Assembly (NCBI GenBank): GCA_016714465.1
Contig: JADKDT010000005.1
Span: 58,186-122,185 of the forward strand
Length of the DNA stretch: 64,000 nt
Direction of reading: 5' to 3'
Source: Candidatus Brachythrix odensensis
GTDB lineage: Bacteria; Chloroflexota; Anaerolineae; J036; Brachytrichaceae
The position numbers and the translations under genes were made by a program. Positions 20,682 through 29,060 of the stretch are shown in pieces (within the stretch, counting starts at the first letter, position 1; each line of letters begins with the position of its first letter). Under the pieces are notes generated by a model, which made no database searches, was not told the DNA's origin, and saw only the letters and a program-made list of their open reading frames with translations.

Positions 20682-22136
20682 ATGGAAGAAAGTATTCGAG
20701 TAGCAGCACCCGCCTTGCCGTCCGGCGCCGGACGGCGTCGTGCGTGGCTGGCCGTGCCAATCATCCTCGGGCTTCTGAGCCTCCTAACGGCGGGCTATTT
20801 CAGCACGCTCACCCCGGCTCAGATTGTGGACGGCGAGCGCATCCTGCCGATCAGCACGCACCAAACCACGGTTGGCGCCGCGCTTCGAGAGGCGGGGATC
20901 ACCCTCCTTGCCGAAGATGTTGTGTCGCCGGGCCTCGAATCCGTCCTCAACCGAAACGACGCGATCGTCATCAAACGCGCCCTCACCACCCGGGTTGTCC
21001 TTGAGAACCAAGAGCCCCGGCTCGTGCGGACCCAAAGCCGCTCAGCGCGTCAGGTGCTGGCCAAACTCGGGGTGAACGTCGGCAATTTCGATCTCGTCAC
21101 CGTGGACGGCAGTTTTAGCGAAGCGCTGCCCGATCAAGCGGCAGGAAAATCCGCCGGTGTGATCTCTGAAATTCGATATCGCCCGGCAATGACCCTGAAG
21201 ATCAGCGACCAGGGCCAGAACGTCACCCTGCAGACGACCGGCGCCACGGTCGGCGAGGCCCTGATGCAGGCCGGGCGCACTCCATATCTGGCCGATCGCA
21301 TCACACCGCCCGTTGGCGCACCGATCGAAAACGGGATGGCCGTGACGGTTGTCCGCGCCAAACCCGTCAATGTCGTCGTCGACGGCCGGCGGCTGCGGAC
21401 AAGAACCCACAGCGCGACCGTCGGCGATGTGTTGACCGAGCTCAATGTCGTGCTCTACGACCAGGACTTTGCCCGTCCGGCGCTTGGGACCCCGATCGCC
21501 GACGACATGGAAATCCGAGTCGTGCGGGTCAAACGCGAGCTTGTCATCGTCCAGGACATCATCCCCTTTGACACGCGTTACCAACCGGATGGCAACCTTG
21601 AACTCGACAATACGATCGTGGGCCAGGAAGGCGCGCCTGGGGTCAGGGAGAAACGCACCCTTCTCACCCTCGAGGATGGCGCCGAGGTCAAGCGCGAGCT
21701 GGTGGCCGACTTCATCGCCCGCGAAGTGCAGCCGCGCATCTACAAGTACGGCACGAAGATCGTCATTCGCAATGTGGACACGCCGAATGGGCCAGTCCAG
21801 TACTGGCGCACGATCCGAATGTGGGCGACGTCCTACTCGGCCAGCACCGCCGGCACATCCCGGACGGCCCGAAACTACGGCATCGTACGGTGCGGCATTC
21901 CGATGCGCCGTGGCATCGTCGCGGTCGACCCTGCCGTCATTCCCTTGCGCACCTACGTCTATGTCGAAGGATATGGCGAGGGCTACGCCTGCGACACGGG
22001 CGGCGCCATCCAGAACAAACGGATCGACCTCGGGTATGACGACGACAATCTCAAGTTGTGGCGCGGCTGGGTGACGGTCTACCAACTTGCGCCGCCACCG
22101 GCCAAGATTCAGTACATCCTCGATCCGGAGCAATAG
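20682..22136 (+). CDS. Membrane-anchored DUF348 (x4) / G5 / 3D-domain cell-wall protein (YabE / RpfB-scaffold-like)
   Basis: ORF 20643..22136; ATG 20682 is preferred. TM segment AWLAVPIILGLLSLLTAGYF. Repeated TVGxxLxxxG modules. G5-like segment. C-terminal 3D domain (GIVAVDPAVIPLRTYVYVEGYG...CDTGGAI). Confidence 0.8.
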   Translation: MEESIRVAAPALPSGAGRRRAWLAVPIILGLLSLLTAGYFSTLTPAQIVDGERILPISTHQTTVGAALREAGITLLAEDVVSPGLESVLNRNDAIVIKRALTTRVVLENQEPRLVRTQSRSARQVLAKLGVNVGNFDLVTVDGSFSEALPDQAAGKSAGVISEIRYRPAMTLKISDQGQNVTLQTTGATVGEALMQAGRTPYLADRITPPVGAPIENGMAVTVVRAKPVNVVVDGRRLRTRTHSATVGDVLTELNVVLYDQDFARPALGTPIADDMEIRVVRVKRELVIVQDIIPFDTRYQPDGNLELDNTIVGQEGAPGVREKRTLLTLEDGAEVKRELVADFIAREVQPRIYKYGTKIVIRNVDTPNGPVQYWRTIRMWATSYSASTAGTSRTARNYGIVRCGIPMRRGIVAVDPAVIPLRTYVYVEGYGEGYACDTGGAIQNKRIDLGYDDDNLKLWRGWVTVYQLAPPPAKIQYILDPEQ

Positions 22137-22140
22137 CGGC

Positions 22141-22993
22141 ATGGAAATCGTCAGTCGCAATCAACTTCAGAACCTCGGGATCGAGCCCAAGAAAAGCCTG
22201 GGACAAAACTTCCTGGTCGATGCGGCTGCCGCGGAACGGATTGTCGACGCCGTTGGCATCGAAACGAATGATCTCGTCTTCGAGATCGGGCCAGGCACCG
22301 GGGCGCTAACGCGCGCGCTGGTGAAGCAAGCCGGCCAGGTGATCGCGATTGAACTGGATCCACGTCTGGTCGAAACCCTGCGCGAGATCTTCAAGCGCGC
22401 GCCCAACCTGACGGTGGTTCACACGGACGCGCTCGAAGCAGATTACGCGGCGCTGGCCGCCGCGCACGCGCCCACGAACACGGGGATCCGCTTTGTGGGC
22501 AACCTGCCGCACCATTACCTCGGCGATTGTGCGAAAGATCCTGGAAAGCGGGCTGGCGTGGGAAAGCGTCGTTGTCACTGTGCAACTCGAGGTCGCCCAG
22601 CGCATGGTGGCTGGGCCCGGCGACATGGGCCTGCTGTCGGTGGCCACCCAGCTCTACAGCAAGGCCGAAATGCTGATGCGCCTGGCCGCCGGCGCTTTCT
22701 ATCCCCAGCCTGGGATCGACTCGGCGGTGGTCCGGCTCACCCCGCACCCCGCGCCGCTATTTGACCAACCCGAGATCCTGTTCAAGCTGGCCCGGGCCGG
22801 TTTCAGCCAACGCCGCAAACAGCTTATCAACACGCTGTCCACCGGGGTCGGGCTGAGCAAAATCGACGCCGCCGAATTGCTGCTGAAGGCAAAAGTAGAG
22901 CCCAGCCGACGCCCGGAGACACTGACCGTTGCCGAGTGGATCAGGCTGTCGCAGGTCTATTTGGCCTTCACGCCGTCAGAAGGCGCGGGGTGA
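22141..22993 (+). CDS. rsmA: 16S rRNA (adenine1518/1519-N6)-dimethyltransferase RsmA/KsgA, frame broken near 22510-22514
   Basis: MEIVSRNQLQNLGIEPKKSLGQNFL, EIGPGTGALT and FVGNLP lie in frame 1. ITSAIVRKILES and the rest to the C-terminus lie in frame 2 (ORF 22493..22993). Confidence 0.8.
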
Positions 22994-23002
22994 TCTCCCT
23001 GT

Positions 23003-23108
23003 CAGAATCACGGATAACACGGAGAGGACGGATTGCACGGAAAGGCTCGTGCTCGCACACTTCAGCCACCCTGTGTCATCTGCAGCGTCCGTGTCCTCCG
23101 TGATTCTG
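23003..23108. repeat. CACGGA-family inverted-repeat (MITE-like) element, complete copy
   Basis: Left arm cagaatcacggataacacggagaggacggattgcacgg. Right arm in reverse complement is cagaatcacggaggacacggacgctgcagatgacacagg. Confidence 0.8.
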
Positions 23109-23322
23109 CCGGAGGTGTCGCTGCGCTCGACTCCCCACCACCTTCACGCACCCCTGCCGGATGCTGCGCGTCGCTCCGTCCGTACCCGCATCCCGGACGG
23201 ATGCACAGGGGTAGCCGTTGGTGACACGATGTCAGTATCTGGCCCTGAAAGGGCGGCATGGCACACGGGGACTCTCGAGCAGCCAAGTCTTCACATTCAC
23301 GCAGAGGTAATGACGGGCCTGG

Positions 23323-24738
23323 TCAACAGCAACGCGCAGTCTCTGGCCTCGCCATTTCGAGCACGGGAATCGATGTCAGGGTGATCAATCCCGGCTTCGC
23401 GGACGGCGTGGCGCAGCAGCCCGTGTCGCAGCCACACGCCTCGGTTTGGGCGGCGGTGGCGCCGGCCACGGGATCGACCTCGCAACATCCACCCGCCGGC
23501 CCGGAACAAACGCCGGTCTCGGGCAGCACCAGGCGGGTGTCGAGGGCGGCCTGCATGTCTCCGGCGATCGCGGCGACGATGCTGCGGACCTGCTCGTAGC
23601 CGGTCAACATCAGAAAGGTCGGCGCGCGGCCATAGCTCTTCATCCCGGCGATGTAGAAACCGGGCTCCGCCTCATGCTTAAGTTCTGCCCAGCCATGCGG
23701 CGGGACACTTCCGCAACTATGCAGGTTCGGGTCGATGAGCGGCGCCAGCGCGGCCGGGGCCTCGTTCCGATCGTCGAGGTTCAGGCGCAACTCGCGCAGC
23801 ATCTCCAAGTTGGGGCGGAAGCCGGTGGCCGCGACGATCTCGTCGACGACGATGCGTCGGCCGTCATCGGCAACGACCTCAAGCGCGTCTGCGCGTTCGA
23901 TCCGCTCAATCCGAAATCCAGTGAGCAGGGTCAACCCACCCCGGGCAACCAGGGATCGAACGCGGTCGCCTAGTTCACCCCTGGCGCTGAGCTGATCGTC
24001 TGCCCCGCCCCCAAACATTTGCCCGGCCTCAGACCGCCGGACCGCCCAGGCCACCTGGGTGGCAGGCACCGCCTCCGCCAACTGGATCAGAGCGAGGACC
24101 GCGTTGAAGGCACTATGCCCGCTGCCCACAACCAGCACCCGTTTGCCGGCATAGCGAGCGCGGTCGCAGCCGGTGGCATCCGGTATGCCATACAGGATGC
24201 GCGCGTGGGCGGCGCGCTCGCCCGGTGCGGGCGTGCCACTCGCGCCAAGCGGGTTGGGCGAGGACCAGGTGCCGCTGGCGTCAATGACGGCCCGGGCCAG
24301 CAACACGCTTTCCTCGCCGGCGCTCTCAATCTGGAGGGCGAAAGGGGCGTCCTCGCGGCCGGCGCTCTTGAGCTTGTCGTAGCCCTTGCGCGAGACGCTG
24401 GTAACGCGGGTGTTCAGGCGGAGGGCAGCCTGGATGGGCCCGGTCGCCGCGAGCGGCTCAAGGTAGGCGGAGACGATCTCACCGCCGGTCGGATAGCCCT
24501 CAGGATCAGGCGCGGACCACTGGGTCGAGGCCAGGAGGGCGCGGGCGGCATCGTCGATCAGATAACGCCACGGGCTGAAGACCTGAACGTGGGCCCACGC
24601 GCGCAGGCTGACGCCGACGGCGTTGCCGGCCTCGAGTATGACGAAGGCCTCGCCGCGGGCATGCAAGTGGGCGGCGGCGGCCAGGCCGATCGGGCCGGCG
24701 CCGATGATGGCCACGGGCAGGGATGTCGTGTTTGGCAT
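23323..24738 (-). CDS. FAD/NAD(P)-binding pyridine-nucleotide-disulfide-oxidoreductase-like flavoprotein with Cys-rich C-terminal tail
   Basis: ORF 23323..24738, 471 aa. VAIIGAGPIGLAAA and VLVVGSGHSA dinucleotide folds. The last ~70 aa contain 9 Cys (VCSG, GGCC, CGC, GCC, terminal CC). Confidence 0.75.
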   Translation of the reverse strand: MPNTTSLPVAIIGAGPIGLAAAAHLHARGEAFVILEAGNAVGVSLRAWAHVQVFSPWRYLIDDAARALLASTQWSAPDPEGYPTGGEIVSAYLEPLAATGPIQAALRLNTRVTSVSRKGYDKLKSAGREDAPFALQIESAGEESVLLARAVIDASGTWSSPNPLGASGTPAPGERAAHARILYGIPDATGCDRARYAGKRVLVVGSGHSAFNAVLALIQLAEAVPATQVAWAVRRSEAGQMFGGGADDQLSARGELGDRVRSLVARGGLTLLTGFRIERIERADALEVVADDGRRIVVDEIVAATGFRPNLEMLRELRLNLDDRNEAPAALAPLIDPNLHSCGSVPPHGWAELKHEAEPGFYIAGMKSYGRAPTFLMLTGYEQVRSIVAAIAGDMQAALDTRLVLPETGVCSGPAGGCCEVDPVAGATAAQTEACGCDTGCCATPSAKPGLITLTSIPVLEMARPETARCC

Positions 24739-24745
24739 GGAACTC

Positions 24746-25081
24746 CTATCGCTTGTTGAGCGCGTGCTTTACGGTCTGGGTAACGTCTTCATCCGGGGCG
24801 AAACGGACCATGAGCTGGCCACAGCACACGCTGAGGCGCTCCTGGTTGAGCGAATAGAAGGTCTCGCGGCCCTGGTGCTCGGCGGTGACGAGCCCGGCTT
24901 CGCGCAGGATGGCCAGGTGATGGCTGACGGTGGGCTGGGCGACCCCGATCTTCGTGGTGATGTCGCCGACGGTCAGGCGCTCGCAGCAGCACAGGCTCAT
25001 GATGCGCTGGCGGGTGTCGTCGGCGAGGGCCTTGGCAAAGGCGACAACGTCCACCGGGGCGGACTTCTTATAGATACTCAT
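24746..25081 (-). CDS. ArsR/SmtB-family metal(loid)-responsive transcriptional repressor
   Basis: ORF 24746..25081, 111 aa. LADDTRQRIMSLCCCERLTVGDI (Cys cluster at the alpha3 site) and QPTVSHHLAILREAGLV recognition helix. Confidence 0.85.
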   Translation of the reverse strand: MSIYKKSAPVDVVAFAKALADDTRQRIMSLCCCERLTVGDITTKIGVAQPTVSHHLAILREAGLVTAEHQGRETFYSLNQERLSVCCGQLMVRFAPDEDVTQTVKHALNKR

Positions 25082-25090
25082 CGATGGGTT

Positions 25091-25118
25091 ATTATATAGA
25101 CGTACGTCTATTTGTCAA
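25091..25118 (-). promoter_or_regulatory. Consensus sigma70-type promoter with an operator palindrome in the spacer; leaderless arsR transcript predicted
   Basis: On the minus strand: TTGACA (25113-25118), 16-nt spacer, TATAAT (25091-25096), then 9 nt to ATG 25081. Perfect 16-bp palindrome atagacgtacgtctat at 25096-25111. Confidence 0.6.
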
Positions 25119-25130
25119 GGCCCTTTTGTC

Positions 25131-25232
25131 TGAATCACGGCCGACACGGAGGCCGCGGATTTCACGGAACAACTCGCGCTGACCCACTTGCGCTATCCGT
25201 GTAATCTGTCCCTTCCGTGTCATCCGTGATCG
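25131..25232. repeat. CACGGA-family inverted-repeat (MITE-like) element, complete copy
   Basis: tgaatcacggccgacacggaggccgcggatttcacgg ... ccgtgtaatctgtcccttccgtgtcatccgtgatcg. Confidence 0.8.
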
Positions 25233-25247
25233 TGGTTCTGGCGCGCC

Positions 25248-28200
25248 CTACCGCAGCACCCGCGGGACAAACGTCGCCCGGGTCTCGAAGCGGGCGGCGC
25301 AGGATGTGTCCGCCGTCATCGTCACCACCCCATCGGTGCAGTCCGCGTCGCCGCTCCAGCCGGCGAATGCCCAGCCCGCCTGGGCCGCCGCCCCGAGCAT
25401 GATGACCGATCCATACGAGAATGGGTTGGCCCCCACCGTTGGCGTTACGCCAGCGCTGCCCGCGCCAGGGGTCGTCACCGTGGGCGTGCTCGCGTTGACG
25501 ATGAAGGCCGTTGTCGTCATCGTCAACGTATAGGTGTTAATCCCAAACGCGGCCGTGATTGTGTGGTCGGCCGTAACGTTCGTGAATGTGTAGCCCTGCA
25601 GCGCCCCTTGTGAGACGCCGTCCACCCCCACGTCCACGACATGGTAGCCGGTGTCTGGCGTGATTGTGAACGCCGCCATGCCCGAGTAGTTCACCGTTTG
25701 CGGCGTGCCCGGCGTGATCGACCCGTTCGCCCCCGCCGTGGGCGTGATCGTGTAGGTGTTGATCGCAAACGTGGCCGTGATCGTGTGGTCGGCCGTCACG
25801 TTGGTGAACGTGTAGACCTGCAACTCACCCTGCGAGACGCCGTCCGCGCCCACATCCACGACGTGGTACCCCGTGTCGGGTGTGATCGCAAAGATTGCCG
25901 TCCCTCCCGTGTTCACCGTCTGCGGCGCAACCGGCGTGATCGACCCATTCGCCCCTGCCGTCGGGGTGATCAGCCAGGCCGGCAGCTCATCGTAGCCAAT
26001 GTCAAAACCCGCGCCTTGCGGGCGGACCTGCCCGTCAAAGTCGGCGTAGACGCCCGCATCGATCCCCGCATCCAGGGCCGCGCTGCCCAGGCTCAGGTGG
26101 TAGTCGGCGGCCATCGGGTTCACAAACCCGGCCGTTCCGGTGATGCCGCCCACGCTGATAACGGTCCCGCTATAGGGCGTCGTCACATTGTCAAAGAGGG
26201 TGTTCCAGTCCCCAGCCGTGATGGCGCTGGCGTCAATCCCGATGGTATGCGAGGCGATCAGGGTGTTGGTCATGAAAACCGCCGCCTGATCGTCGCCATA
26301 CACGGCCGAGCCGCTCGCGATAGTCGGGCTGGCGATGGTGGTGTGGACCAGGCTCAGCGTGGCGTCCCCAACGTAGATGTCCAGTCCGCGCTTTGCGTCA
26401 GCCTGATTTGCGGCAAAGAGAGCGTTCACGACCCGTGAAGTGTTGCAGCACCGGATGGACAGCCCGCCGCCAACTTTGGCAATATTGCCGATGAACTGGG
26501 TGCCCGTCAGCTCAAGCTTGTAGTAGACATATAGACCGCCGCCCCCGCCATTGCCGCCGCTGCGATTGTCCTGGAACAGCCCGCGCTCGACCGTCGCGCC
26601 ATCATCGGCAAAGACGCCACCCCCGTCGCCGTCGCTGCTGTTGCCAATAAAGCGCGTATCGGCCAGCGTCAGCGCGCCCCTCGCGTAAAGGCCGCCGTGC
26701 TTGGTGTTCCCCCGATTGCCGATGAACGCCCCGCCCGTCACGTTCACGATGTCGCGCGCGTTCACCCCGCCGCCCTCATTGGCGGTATTGCTGATGAACT
26801 GGGTGTCGGTCAGCGTCAGTTCGCCCTCAACATACAGCCCGCCGCCTCGCGCGGCGCTGGTGTTGCCCTGGAAGACCGCGCCGTTCAAGCTCGCCGCGTC
26901 GCCTGCGTAAGCGCCGCCCGCCCAACCCCCTTGCAGGGCGGTATTGCTCACGACCCGGGTCGCGGTCAGCGCGAGTGTGCTATTTGCATACACGCCGCCG
27001 CCGTCCTGACCCCGATTGTTCTCGATGGCGCCGCCCACGAGCGATAGCGCGCCGGTCGCGTACAGACCCCCGCCTCCGGCTTTGGCAGTATTGTTGCTGA
27101 ACGTTGTGTTCTCCGCAAACACCGCTCCCAGACCAAACACCCCGCCGCCTTGATGGCCCCCCGCCGTTCCCGTGATCGCATTCCCGCGCACGCTGAGGTC
27201 GGTCAGGGTCAGCGCGCCGCCGGCATAGATGCCCCCGCCATGCGCGGTGCCTGGTGTGCTGAGGGAACCGTTGGTGGCCGTGAATCCGCGCAGCGTGGCG
27301 GCCACAGACGCAAAGATGACCCGTCCGCCCGCAAGCGCGTCGAGGGTGGTGGGATTTGCGACCGGAGCGTAGGTCGTCCAGTCGGTAGTGGTGTAGCCGC
27401 CCGAGAGGGTCACCGACTTCGTGATGAGGGCCACCTGGGTCGTGCCGCCCTGGGTCTGCGCGCCTGCGCAGTAGCCTGCCACTTTCACCGTGCCGTTTGG
27501 CGCGACTGCGCCGAGGGCATCCCGGACCGCCCGCGCGTTGGCGCTGCCGAAAACGGTCGTGCCGTTGTCGGGTGTGGCGAAGCAGATATGGGCCCCAAAG
27601 GCCGCGGTGATGACATGGTCGGCCGTCACATTGGTGAACGTGAAGCTGTCAAGCGCCCCCTGCGAAACCCCGTCCACGCCCACATCCAGCACGTCATAGT
27701 TGGCACTGGGCACGACCGTGAATCTGACGGAAGTACCGGGCGAGACCGTCTGGGGCGTTCCCGGCATGATGGCGCCGCCGGCCCCCGCCGTCGGGGTGAG
27801 GACGTAGAAGATCGCCTCAAACGCGCCCAGGTCAACAATGCCGTTTTGCGGGCGGGCCACCCCACGCTGGTCGGTCGCGGGGCCAGGCCGTTGCTGCCCT
27901 GGTTGATCGCGGATGAACCCAGGAGCACGGCCATCGTCCATGTCGCGCCGCCGTTGTCGGCCAGCGGCTGCAGGCTGGGGTCGCCCGAGTAGCTGGCGTT
28001 GCAGCTGCCATCCTCGATCAAGGTGGTGATGGCGGTCGAACTCCCCGCAACGCAGTCGTTCGGGCCGTTGTTGGCGATGAGCGTGTTGGTGAGGTAAACC
28101 GTCCCGGATACCCACAGCCCGCCACCCGTGCCTGCGGCGGTCCGGTTGTCCGAGAAGGTGCTGTTGAGGGCGTTGATCGTGTTGAGCGCATTCACCGCCC

Positions 28201-28927
28201 CGCCATCGCCGGCCGAGGTGTTGCTATAGAACGTGCTATTGATGAGGGTGGCCCGGCCGGCATAGACGGCACCCCCGCCGCTTGCGCCAGCGATGTTGTA
28301 GGCAAACGTGCTGTTGGCGATGGTGACGGGGCCATTGGCCGCCACCCCGCCACCCCAGCCGCTGCTGGTGAATCCGCCGTTGTTGTTGCGCAGGGTCGAG
28401 GAGTAGATGCTCACCCCCGCCGAGGAACTACTGTTCCAGATGCCGCCGCCGGGAGAGGCCGAGGAGAGGCCATTCAGGATGTTGAGGTTTTCCACCGTCA
28501 GGGCCCGATTGGTGCGGATGACGCGCCCGGCGTTGACCCCATCCAGGGTGGCGGGTTGGGTGATGGGATAAGCGCTGCTCCAGTTTGTGTCGGTATACCC
28601 GCCGCGCAGGGTGAGTGCCTTGCCGCTGATGTCGACCAGATGCCCGGCGCTGATCCCGGCGCAGTAACCGGCGACTTTGATCGTGCCGCCTGCAGCGGCC
28701 GCCGCCACGGCATCACGAACAGCTTGAGAGTCTGCGCTGGCAAAGTCGGTGACGTTGTCGCCGGTGTACTCGGTTAAGCAGTTCTGCGGGAAAACCAGGC
28801 CATCGGGCGGGGTCGGGGCCCATACCAAGGGCGCGAAGACCGCGCCCTCCCACGCAGATACCGGGGCCGCGCTGAAGAGCGCGACAGCAAGCGCGAAAAC
28901 ATACCGAACGGCGAGCGTTGGGGACAT
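25248..28927 (-). CDS. Large secreted surface protein (~1226 aa): two right-handed beta-helix (choice-of-anchor-Q / Pmp-repeat-like) modules plus four Ig-like (divergent InlB-B-repeat-like) domains; frame broken at the run of four G at 27879-27882
   Basis: Signal peptide MSPTLAVRYVFALAVALFSAAPVSAWEG from ATG 28927, preceded by a GGGAG RBS. GGG(A/L)(Y/W)-type repeats. ..SAINQGSNGLA is in ORF 27626..28966, and ATDQRGVARPQNGIVDLGAFE continues in ORF 25248..28115. Adding one C to the CCCC run restores a single frame. Confidence 0.8.
25528..25971. repeat. Intragenic 222-bp tandem repeat (x2), 74-aa Ig-like module
   Basis: INTYT(I/L)TPTAGANGSITP..PQTVN..TPDTGYHVVDVG.DGVSQG.LQ.YTFTNVTADHTITA.F is duplicated with high nucleotide identity. 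A diverged third copy lies near 27590-27800. Confidence 0.8.
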
Positions 28928-29060
28928 GTCTATCTCCCAGATGGCCCGCGGGTCAGGGCCGGCCACCGCGTTTGTACAACGTTGCGCGTGCTATTTCTCC
29001 CCCCGGGAGACAGCTGATACCGAGAGACTATAACGCCGAACCGATGAATGCGGGCGCGGG

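Follow-up and report, generated by a model that had tools for sequence, protein, structure and literature searches.

A putatively self-regulated arsR–flavoprotein operon of Candidatus Brachythrix odensensis: a probable arsenical-detoxification module with an ArsV-type enzyme and a cysteine-rich tail

The window discussed here is a stretch of 64,000 nucleotides (nt) from Candidatus Brachythrix odensensis, a member of the Chloroflexota (contig JADKDT010000005.1, positions 58,186 to 122,185 of the forward strand; coordinates below count from its first letter). On its minus strand, two adjacent genes encode a repressor of the ArsR/SmtB family and a flavoprotein of 471 amino acids (aa) that ends in a tail with nine cysteines. 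We consider this pair, with a probability of about 70%, to be a self-regulated operon for arsenical detoxification, in which an ArsV-type flavoenzyme carries the tail as a thiol capture arm. Sequence comparisons directly support the placement of the flavoprotein in a large family of NAD(P)H- and flavin adenine dinucleotide (FAD)-dependent proteins, within the type II flavin-monooxygenase/YpdA superfamily, whose members occur in arsenic-resistance (ars) loci across many phyla. The tail is a conserved part, undescribed in the texts covered, of this common, arsenic-linked family, and we infer that its role is to capture As(III). The parts of the flavoprotein gene are these:

23323–24738, minus strand: flavoprotein open reading frame, a stop-free translation of 471 aa
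23527–24738, minus strand: catalytic core, residues 1–404, with FAD and NAD(P)H Rossmann domains and a family-specific insert with an invariant HSCG
23713–23715, minus strand: codon of Cys342, within the motif IDPNxHSCGxVxPHG
23506–23526, minus strand: LPETGVC junction, residues 405–411, identified by alignment; it starts the tail and ends in the invariant Cys411
23326–23505, minus strand: flexible cysteine-rich tail, residues 412–471, with CC418/419, C435, C437, CC441/442 and the terminal CC470/471 (from sequence, AlphaFold2 and codon comparison)
23359–23391, minus strand: hydrophobic segment GLITLTSIPVL, residues 450–460, between the cysteine cluster and the terminal CC (from pattern counts in tails)

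The body of the flavoprotein forms a complete two-dinucleotide fold (Pfam Pyr_redox_3, E = 3.2e-21; also Pyr_redox_2), with nucleotide-binding motifs GAGPIG at residues 13–18 and GSGHSA at 205–210. The closest solved structures are the type II flavin monooxygenases 4usr, 4usq and 4a9w and the YpdA-type protein 7a76, an NADPH thiol-disulfide reductase that is the best-scoring PDB match to the flavoprotein profile (68 bits). An AlphaFold2 model built from a 70-sequence alignment is confident over the core, with 303 residues at a predicted local distance difference test score (pLDDT) of 90 or more. Pfam, the PDB neighbours and this model agree in giving the protein the two-dinucleotide-fold, NAD(P)H/FAD monooxygenase-like architecture expected of ArsV. 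The core contains two cysteines, C191, which is not conserved among homologues, and C342, which is invariant in 119 homologues and in a separate alignment (A1). The FAD and NADPH domains contain neither a CxxC nor a CxxxxC redox pair, and CxxC is absent from the whole of residues 1–410. From the topology of the fold class, in which the insert follows the second interdomain crossover, Cys342 would lie near the active-site cleft.

The remaining nine of the eleven cysteines (411, 418, 419, 435, 437, 441, 442, 470 and 471) are crowded into the last 61 residues, with the spacing C-x6-CC-x15-CxC-x3-CC-x27-CC; at a cysteine frequency of 1%, the binomial probability of nine or more in 61 residues is approximately 1e-8. 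No Pfam model matches the tail, even at E<=10, and in the AlphaFold2 model pLDDT falls below 50 at residues 407–426, 436–454 and 459–471. All nine tail cysteines are retained in two close relatives from Thermoflexales/Anaerolineae metagenome bins, L001 (91% identity) and L002 (84%). Over the 60 tail codons, these relatives differ from the window by 22 and 20 synonymous changes, respectively, against 10 and 11 non-synonymous ones, and by this measure the tail is evidently coding and under purifying selection. A scan of the organism's own genome for other CC-rich C-termini returned, besides the flavoprotein, only out-of-frame, GC-rich noise.

The tail is also a property of the family. Every one of 119 full-length homologues (57–99% identity) has the LPETGVC junction followed by a cysteine-rich, low-complexity tail of Gly, Ala, Ser and Pro. 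These tails are 21–97 residues long and contain 3–12 cysteines, mostly with one to four vicinal CC pairs; half end in CC. C411, like C342, is invariant among the homologues. The pair corresponding to CC418/419 is kept in 79–91% of them, and further CC pairs in 52–66%. In alignment A1, L405, P406, G409 and C411 of the junction are invariant and its other residues nearly so, and the motif was found in the 42 divergent representatives of 50%-identity clusters that reach this region; divergent representatives that reach the tail share the same tail features. A hydrophobic h-h-x-h segment occurs in 70% of the 119 family tails and in 13% of shuffled tails, a contrast that the kinship of the tails makes indicative only; the same holds for the segment placed after a CC pair (65% versus 2%). 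The segment may dock as a strand onto the core, a dimer partner or the exporter.

The initial annotation of this locus, made from the letters alone, had described a nine-cysteine tail following a complete two-dinucleotide-fold oxidoreductase and had taken the vicinal cysteines to be meaningful. The translation (whose C-terminal end matches the one it quoted), the cysteine count and the Pfam search agree with the description, and conservation across the family indicates that the cysteines are not accidental. It had also envisaged that the tail might be missing from all homologues, or be the product of read-through of a mutated stop codon. Neither proved to be the case: because the cysteines are kept, because synonymous changes are in excess in L001 and L002, and because the tail is family-wide, an origin by read-through or other artefact can be ruled out. 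Its suggestion to search for homologues of the tail, and to ask which metals their neighbours handle, gave a clear answer, a family-wide tail among arsenic genes. Structure prediction, proposed as a way to learn whether the tail can reach the flavin site, gave a confident core and a disordered tail. By simple polymer reasoning, a disordered 60-residue arm anchored at residue 411 would be long enough to reach any point of the monomer or of its dimer partner.

The family is large. Grouping at 90% identity gives at least 8000 clusters, and grouping at 50% identity gives 873 (E<1e-30); members are found on 153 plasmids, from Streptomyces, Bacillus, Rhodococcus, rhizobia and others. Within the window's own phylum its distribution is patchy (31 of 401 sampled genomes; 13 of 218 genera). 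Public annotation is generic, the usual names being ‘NAD(P)-binding domain-containing protein’, ‘FAD-dependent oxidoreductase’ and ‘thioredoxin reductase’. The genetic surroundings are much more informative. The typical module consists of an ArsR, or an arsenic-sensing MarR, followed by the flavoprotein and an ArsK-like major facilitator superfamily (MFS) exporter, near arsC, acr3, arsH or arsM. At 29 loci in the phylum sample, an ArsK-like MFS gene lies directly downstream in 20 and an arsR upstream in 18. Metagenome contigs display variations on this order: ArsR, a flavoprotein::ArsM fusion, an aquaglyceroporin (major intrinsic protein, MIP) and a Gcn5-related N-acetyltransferase (GNAT); ArsR, ArsC, MIP, flavoprotein and MFS; ArsR, ArsM, flavoprotein and MFS; and MarR, GNAT, flavoprotein and MFS. 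On plasmids of Afipia and Shinella, arsR–flavoprotein–MFS is directly beside arsC/acr3/arsH, and on a Neotabrizicola plasmid it is beside arsJ–gapdh. In Ensifer adhaerens, arsR–flavoprotein–arsK stands beside the aio arsenite-oxidase genes; there, the MFS partner is an ArsK equivalog (515 bits, cutoff 400), and the remaining MFS partners are ArsK-like, at 130–200 bits. All of the proteobacterial plasmids inspected carry the MFS partner. Family members are fused, furthermore, to an ArsN-type acetyltransferase (GNAT), to an ArsR helix-turn-helix (HTH) domain and, by way of the tail, to ArsM.

This context (arsC, acr3, arsH, arsM, arsN, arsJ and aio genes, ArsK-like exporters and domain fusions) points to a function specific to arsenic and antimony. 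The initial annotation had spoken of a metal(loid) redox or sequestration pair and had named no substrate. The metalloid part of that proposal is borne out by the ars neighbourhoods and fusions; catalysis is more probable than sequestration, given how strongly the flavoenzyme core is conserved and that most genomes pair it with an exporter. As for the substrate, the context, together with the very probable identity of the family with ArsV (discussed below), would narrow the choice to methylarsenite (MAs(III)), roxarsone(III) (Rox(III)) and Sb(III), as targets of oxidation. Several of the related ars clusters also contain metallophosphoesterase genes (e.g. L018:7769–8500 and L019:3353–4129).

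Expression of the flavoprotein may be tied to arsenic as well. The regulatory features of the operon, and the repeats that bracket it, are:

24746–25081, minus strand: arsR, encoding a 111-aa ArsR/SmtB repressor (HTH_5, E = 5.6e-14)
25091–25118, minus strand: operon promoter, TTGACA and TATAAT with a 16-nt spacer, matching 12 of 12 consensus positions
25096–25111, palindromic: perfect 16-bp palindrome ATAGAC-N4-GTCTAT within the promoter spacer, the presumed ArsR operator
23000–23108, no strand assigned: palindromic CACGGA repeat element on the operon's downstream side (assigned to repeat families D1 and I3), a copy of the next element
25127–25232, no strand assigned: second copy of the CACGGA element, directly upstream of the promoter (repeat families D1, I1 and I2)

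The repressor scores above the cutoff of the ArsR/SmtB model NF033788 (84.6 bits, cutoff 55), which secures its membership in that family. Its CCC cluster, remarked on in the initial annotation and confirmed here, occupies residues 31–33, where the arsenite site CVC classically lies, and residues 86–87 form a further CC. The corresponding motifs, LCCC and VCCG, are kept in the orthologues of loci L001–L004, L011 and L017. The two genes form one operon, with the ATG of the flavoprotein 7 nt after the arsR stop codon and its own ribosome-binding site (GGAG) 5 nt before that ATG. In the interval 22900–25300, the arsR promoter is the sole promoter-like site (shuffled sequences have a mean of 0.3), and the arsR ATG follows its -10 box by 9 nt. 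The orthologous loci L003 and L004 have the same operator half-sites at the matching place in their promoters; this conservation, and the position of the palindrome, suggest that ArsR binds ATAGAC-N4-GTCTAT in its own promoter. A search of the whole 4.63-Mb assembly, allowing one mismatch, found this single match and no wider regulon, and therefore the repressor appears to control only the arsR–flavoprotein operon. An operon under a repressor of the As(III)/Sb(III) type is what would be expected for ArsV, and the CCC site and the putative operator fit that expectation. Some of the family's regulators end in vicinal cysteines too. The ArsR of L011 (3159–3497) ends in KCC, and the MarR of a Paenibacillus plasmid (L024:5319–5768) has CC at residues 23/24 and 144/145, so that terminal CC pairs recur on the sensor, on the enzyme and, in the fusions, on the methylase.

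ArsV has been described from Ensifer adhaerens ST2, Paracoccus sp. SY (in an arsR–arsV–arsW operon) and Achromobacter sp. As-55 (marR–arsV). Its published activity is the oxidation of MAs(III), Rox(III) and Sb(III). In Paracoccus sp. SY, arsV oxidises methylarsenite and arsW extrudes methylarsenate (reviews; PMC10080717). In Achromobacter As-55, MarR_ars represses arsV, and ArsV gives resistance against MAs(III) and Rox(III), and against Rox(V) as well; marR is reported upstream of arsV in Paenibacillus, Ktedonobacter and others (bioRxiv 10.1101/2021.08.12.456183). The supplement to PMC11719878 lists the Achromobacter As-55 arsV as ‘FAD-dependent oxidoreductase’, with marR and aioR as its neighbours, and shows that As(III)/Sb(III) induce it.

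The family of the window's flavoprotein matches these descriptions at several points. On the Paenibacillus plasmid, the gene downstream of marR is a family member, and cysteines 23, 24 and 144 of that MarR correspond to the published MarR_ars cysteines 36, 37 and 157, each number being lower by 13. The product name ‘FAD-dependent oxidoreductase’ is also borne by the family members of Ensifer, Afipia and Bacillus, whereas the ArsO-like genes are named differently. Three-gene arsR–flavoprotein–MFS operons occur in Paracoccaceae and Ensifer; like ArsV, then, the family consists of monooxygenase-like, two-Rossmann flavoproteins under an arsenic-responsive type of ArsR or under MarR_ars, with an MFS exporter in the three-gene operons of the same groups (Ensifer, Paracoccaceae and Paenibacillus). 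On these grounds of synteny, regulator type and annotation, it is very probable that the family and the published ArsV are one and the same. There are differences. The window's operon has no exporter gene, and the cysteine-rich tail and two invariant cysteines are not described for ArsV in the texts covered. If the identity holds, surveys of arsenic cycling in which arsV is recognised by its closeness to the small number of published sequences are likely to give too low a count of the family: one recent survey reported arsV in a single metagenome-assembled genome, compared with the 31 of 401 sampled genomes of the phylum given above.

Other named flavoproteins were considered and set aside. 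ArsO (NCBIfam NF040505), the flavin-binding monooxygenase encoded in the arsRBOCT operon of Streptomyces sp. FR-008, comes from the same superfamily (E = 4e-11, with 30% identity across 334 aa) and shares with the window's protein an N-terminal W-x-H/S-x-x-x-FSP motif and a location in arsenic islands. At approximately 350 aa, it is much shorter than the 471 aa found here and has no HSCG insert, LPETGVC motif or tail, and the window's protein scores 64 bits on its model, far below the cutoff of 425. In the FR-008 plasmid itself, ArsO (356 aa), a second ArsO-like protein and a member of the present family are encoded by three separate genes, the family member with its MFS adjoining the ArsO genes. 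A shorter ArsO-like gene, scoring 243–270 bits on NF040505 (cutoff 425), repeatedly accompanies the family elsewhere, often in the order flavoprotein–MFS–ArsO-like (L020:9544–10584, L024:4100–5149, L025:7531–8601 and L055:6805–7875; also L035–L038 and L043). The low-Mr thioredoxin reductases (TIGR01292) were rejected on score (31 bits, cutoff 343) and for the lack of CxxC in residues 1–410, and so were the YpdA/Bdr bacillithiol-disulfide reductases (TIGR04018; 58.9 bits, cutoff 339.9). The latter and the type II flavin monooxygenases, represented together by 7a76, 7a7b, 4usr, 4usq and 4a9w, are nonetheless the nearest solved folds by sequence and have the same FAD and NAD(P)H motifs. The match is confined to the Rossmann parts (E = 1e-18 to 1e-10), and none has the insert at residues 323–360 or the tail. 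MerA and the other class I pyridine nucleotide-disulfide oxidoreductases were rejected in view of the absence of CxxxxC and of any match to Pyr_redox_dim. The likeness to MerA, with its C-terminal Cys-Cys arm and NmerA, is one of concept: in MerA, a flexible vicinal cysteine pair at the C-terminus takes up a thiophilic substrate and delivers it to active-site cysteines of a pyridine-nucleotide flavoenzyme. The differences lie in the class of flavoprotein, the arsenic context and the likely direction of the reaction, oxidation rather than reduction.

Thiols are ligands of trivalent arsenic and antimony, and MAs(III) classically binds to the two thiols of a vicinal CC pair, as it usually does in ArsI, in ArsP and in MAs(III)-selective ArsR proteins. 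Were the flavoprotein an ArsV, methylarsenite, roxarsone(III) and antimonite would be oxidised with NADPH, flavin and O2, giving pentavalent products far less toxic than the trivalent substrates. The disordered 60-residue tail, with its four vicinal-type sites, would act as a capture arm that concentrates the metalloid and passes it, by thiol exchange, to C411 at the root of the tail and to C342 in the family-specific insert. These two cysteines would present it to the reduced flavin–oxygen species, and the pentavalent product, having no affinity for thiols, would dissociate. In most relatives, the ArsK-like MFS pump encoded downstream would then export the arsenical.

In the organism itself, the likely substrate is methylarsenite, produced by its own ArsM or by neighbours. 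The assembly contains two other arsenic loci, arsR–arsC–acr3 (contig C3, ~405.4–406.7 kb) and arsN–arsM (C3, ~45.2–46.5 kb), beside which the arsR–flavoprotein operon would be a third, separately regulated arsenic module. Since these loci lie elsewhere and the operon has no exporter, methylarsenite, self-made or environmental, is the most sensible substrate; inorganic As(III) is a less likely one, as its oxidation product would be reduced again by the cell's ArsC. Of the 351 query residues, only the first 140 are matched by acr3, and that gene may be diverged or truncated.

A more specific version of this mechanism, which we put forward tentatively and with the odds somewhat against it, is that the family represents the first type of flavin monooxygenase with a tethered substrate, the vicinal-cysteine arm and the hydrophobic docking segment relaying As(III) or Sb(III) to C342/C411 for oxygen transfer. 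The arm would then be the oxidative mirror image of the C-terminal arm of MerA, and in the ArsM fusions it would shuttle methylarsenite directly from methylase to oxidase. The invariant Cys342 and Cys411, and the CC pairs of the tail, are clear mutagenesis targets for learning how a flavoenzyme selects thiophilic metalloids.

Several observations weigh against an ArsV-type detoxification operon. The identity with ArsV was set by synteny, regulator type and a generic product name rather than by comparison with the sequence of a characterised ArsV, and none of the database sources gives that name to any member of the family. The second, shorter ArsO-like flavoprotein, often present in the same islands, could in principle be the ArsV of the papers. 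Within the window, the operon has no MFS exporter (ArsK or ArsW) beside it, and the rest of the 86%-complete assembly yielded no ArsK-like gene; the exporter may not be obligatory, since the arsV of Achromobacter is described with marR only. Finally, as the best-scoring PDB match is a YpdA-type reductase, reductase chemistry is compatible with the sequence. Such chemistry is the most serious rival, although we judge it unlikely. Electrons would flow from NADPH by way of FAD to the cysteine pairs (C342/C411 and the CC of the tail), pentavalent (organo)arsenicals or As–thiol/disulfide adducts would be reduced to the trivalent state, and an ArsK-type pump would export them, by the same logic as ArsC with Acr3. 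The partner transporter is ArsK or ArsK-like, and the known substrates of ArsK are trivalent: it reportedly exports As(III), Sb(III), Rox(III) and MAs(III), to judge by the title of Shi et al. 2018. The 7a76 match, the presence of several redox-capable cysteine pairs, and the extension of Achromobacter ArsV resistance to Rox(V) are in keeping with this. The published activity of ArsV is oxidation, however, and the core, with only the unconserved C191 and C342, lacks the CxxC or CxxxxC pair of the FAD and NADPH domains; at 59 bits against a cutoff of 340 on the YpdA model, the protein is far from that family; and additional toxic trivalent species would do harm in a genome with no adjacent pump.

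Another possibility, improbable to a similar degree, is that the core alone catalyses and the tail is a sensor, a sponge or a protective feature, which buffers trivalent arsenic or thiophilic metals or switches the enzyme on. The tails vary widely in length and cysteine number, some members having a single CC pair, and such variation suggests loose constraints; terminal CC pairs occur, moreover, on the L011 ArsR and the Paenibacillus plasmid MarR, where they are sensor sites. Yet at least one CC pair within approximately 20 residues of C411 is nearly universal (79–91%), an enzyme made from a repressed operon would sequester very little metalloid stoichiometrically, and the tail persists as the linker in the ArsM fusions, for which hand-over between active sites is the simplest rationale. 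Least probable, and by a wide measure doubtful, is a different thiophilic substrate: mercury or cadmium, as in MerA, or reactive sulfur species under a persulfide-sensing regulator of the BigR/SqrR kind. A C-terminal vicinal CC is a hallmark of MerA also, a mer operon lies near the Afipia copy, and the ArsR gives weak scores, 45–50 bits, on the CmtR, BigR and TsoR models. Those scores are far under the cutoffs of 115–155, however, and the flavoprotein has neither the CxxxxC of MerA nor its dimerisation domain. Most tellingly, arsenic genes are the neighbours or fusion partners in every locus examined, and mer, cad and sulfide-oxidation genes are never direct partners. An ArsV-type oxidase with a thiol arm is the reading we hold most likely.

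The operon is no recent arrival. An IMPase-like (inositol monophosphatase-like) gene and ksgA flank it in L002 and L003 as they do in the window, which rules out recent insertion; the operon is therefore an inherited chromosomal module of the lineage. The two CACGGA copies, each of ~105 bp, bracket it in the same orientation, with 72% identity over 72 nt, and a similar element precedes arsR in L001 and L002. Its role may be that of a terminator, of an insulator or of a mobile element. The flanking ksgA/rsmA gene for the 16S rRNA dimethyltransferase (22087–22993, plus strand) is split over two frames near 22514. The halves share a single frame in L002, where 480 nt separate them against 478 nt in the window, and the split is either a real frameshift or an assembly error. 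On the other side, the stretch 25248–28966 (minus strand), which separates arsR from the IMPase-like gene, encodes two large surface proteins of 955 and 446 aa, both repeat-rich and beta-helix-like. Both are absent from the otherwise syntenic L002 and L003, and form an insertion of ~4 kb specific to this genome.

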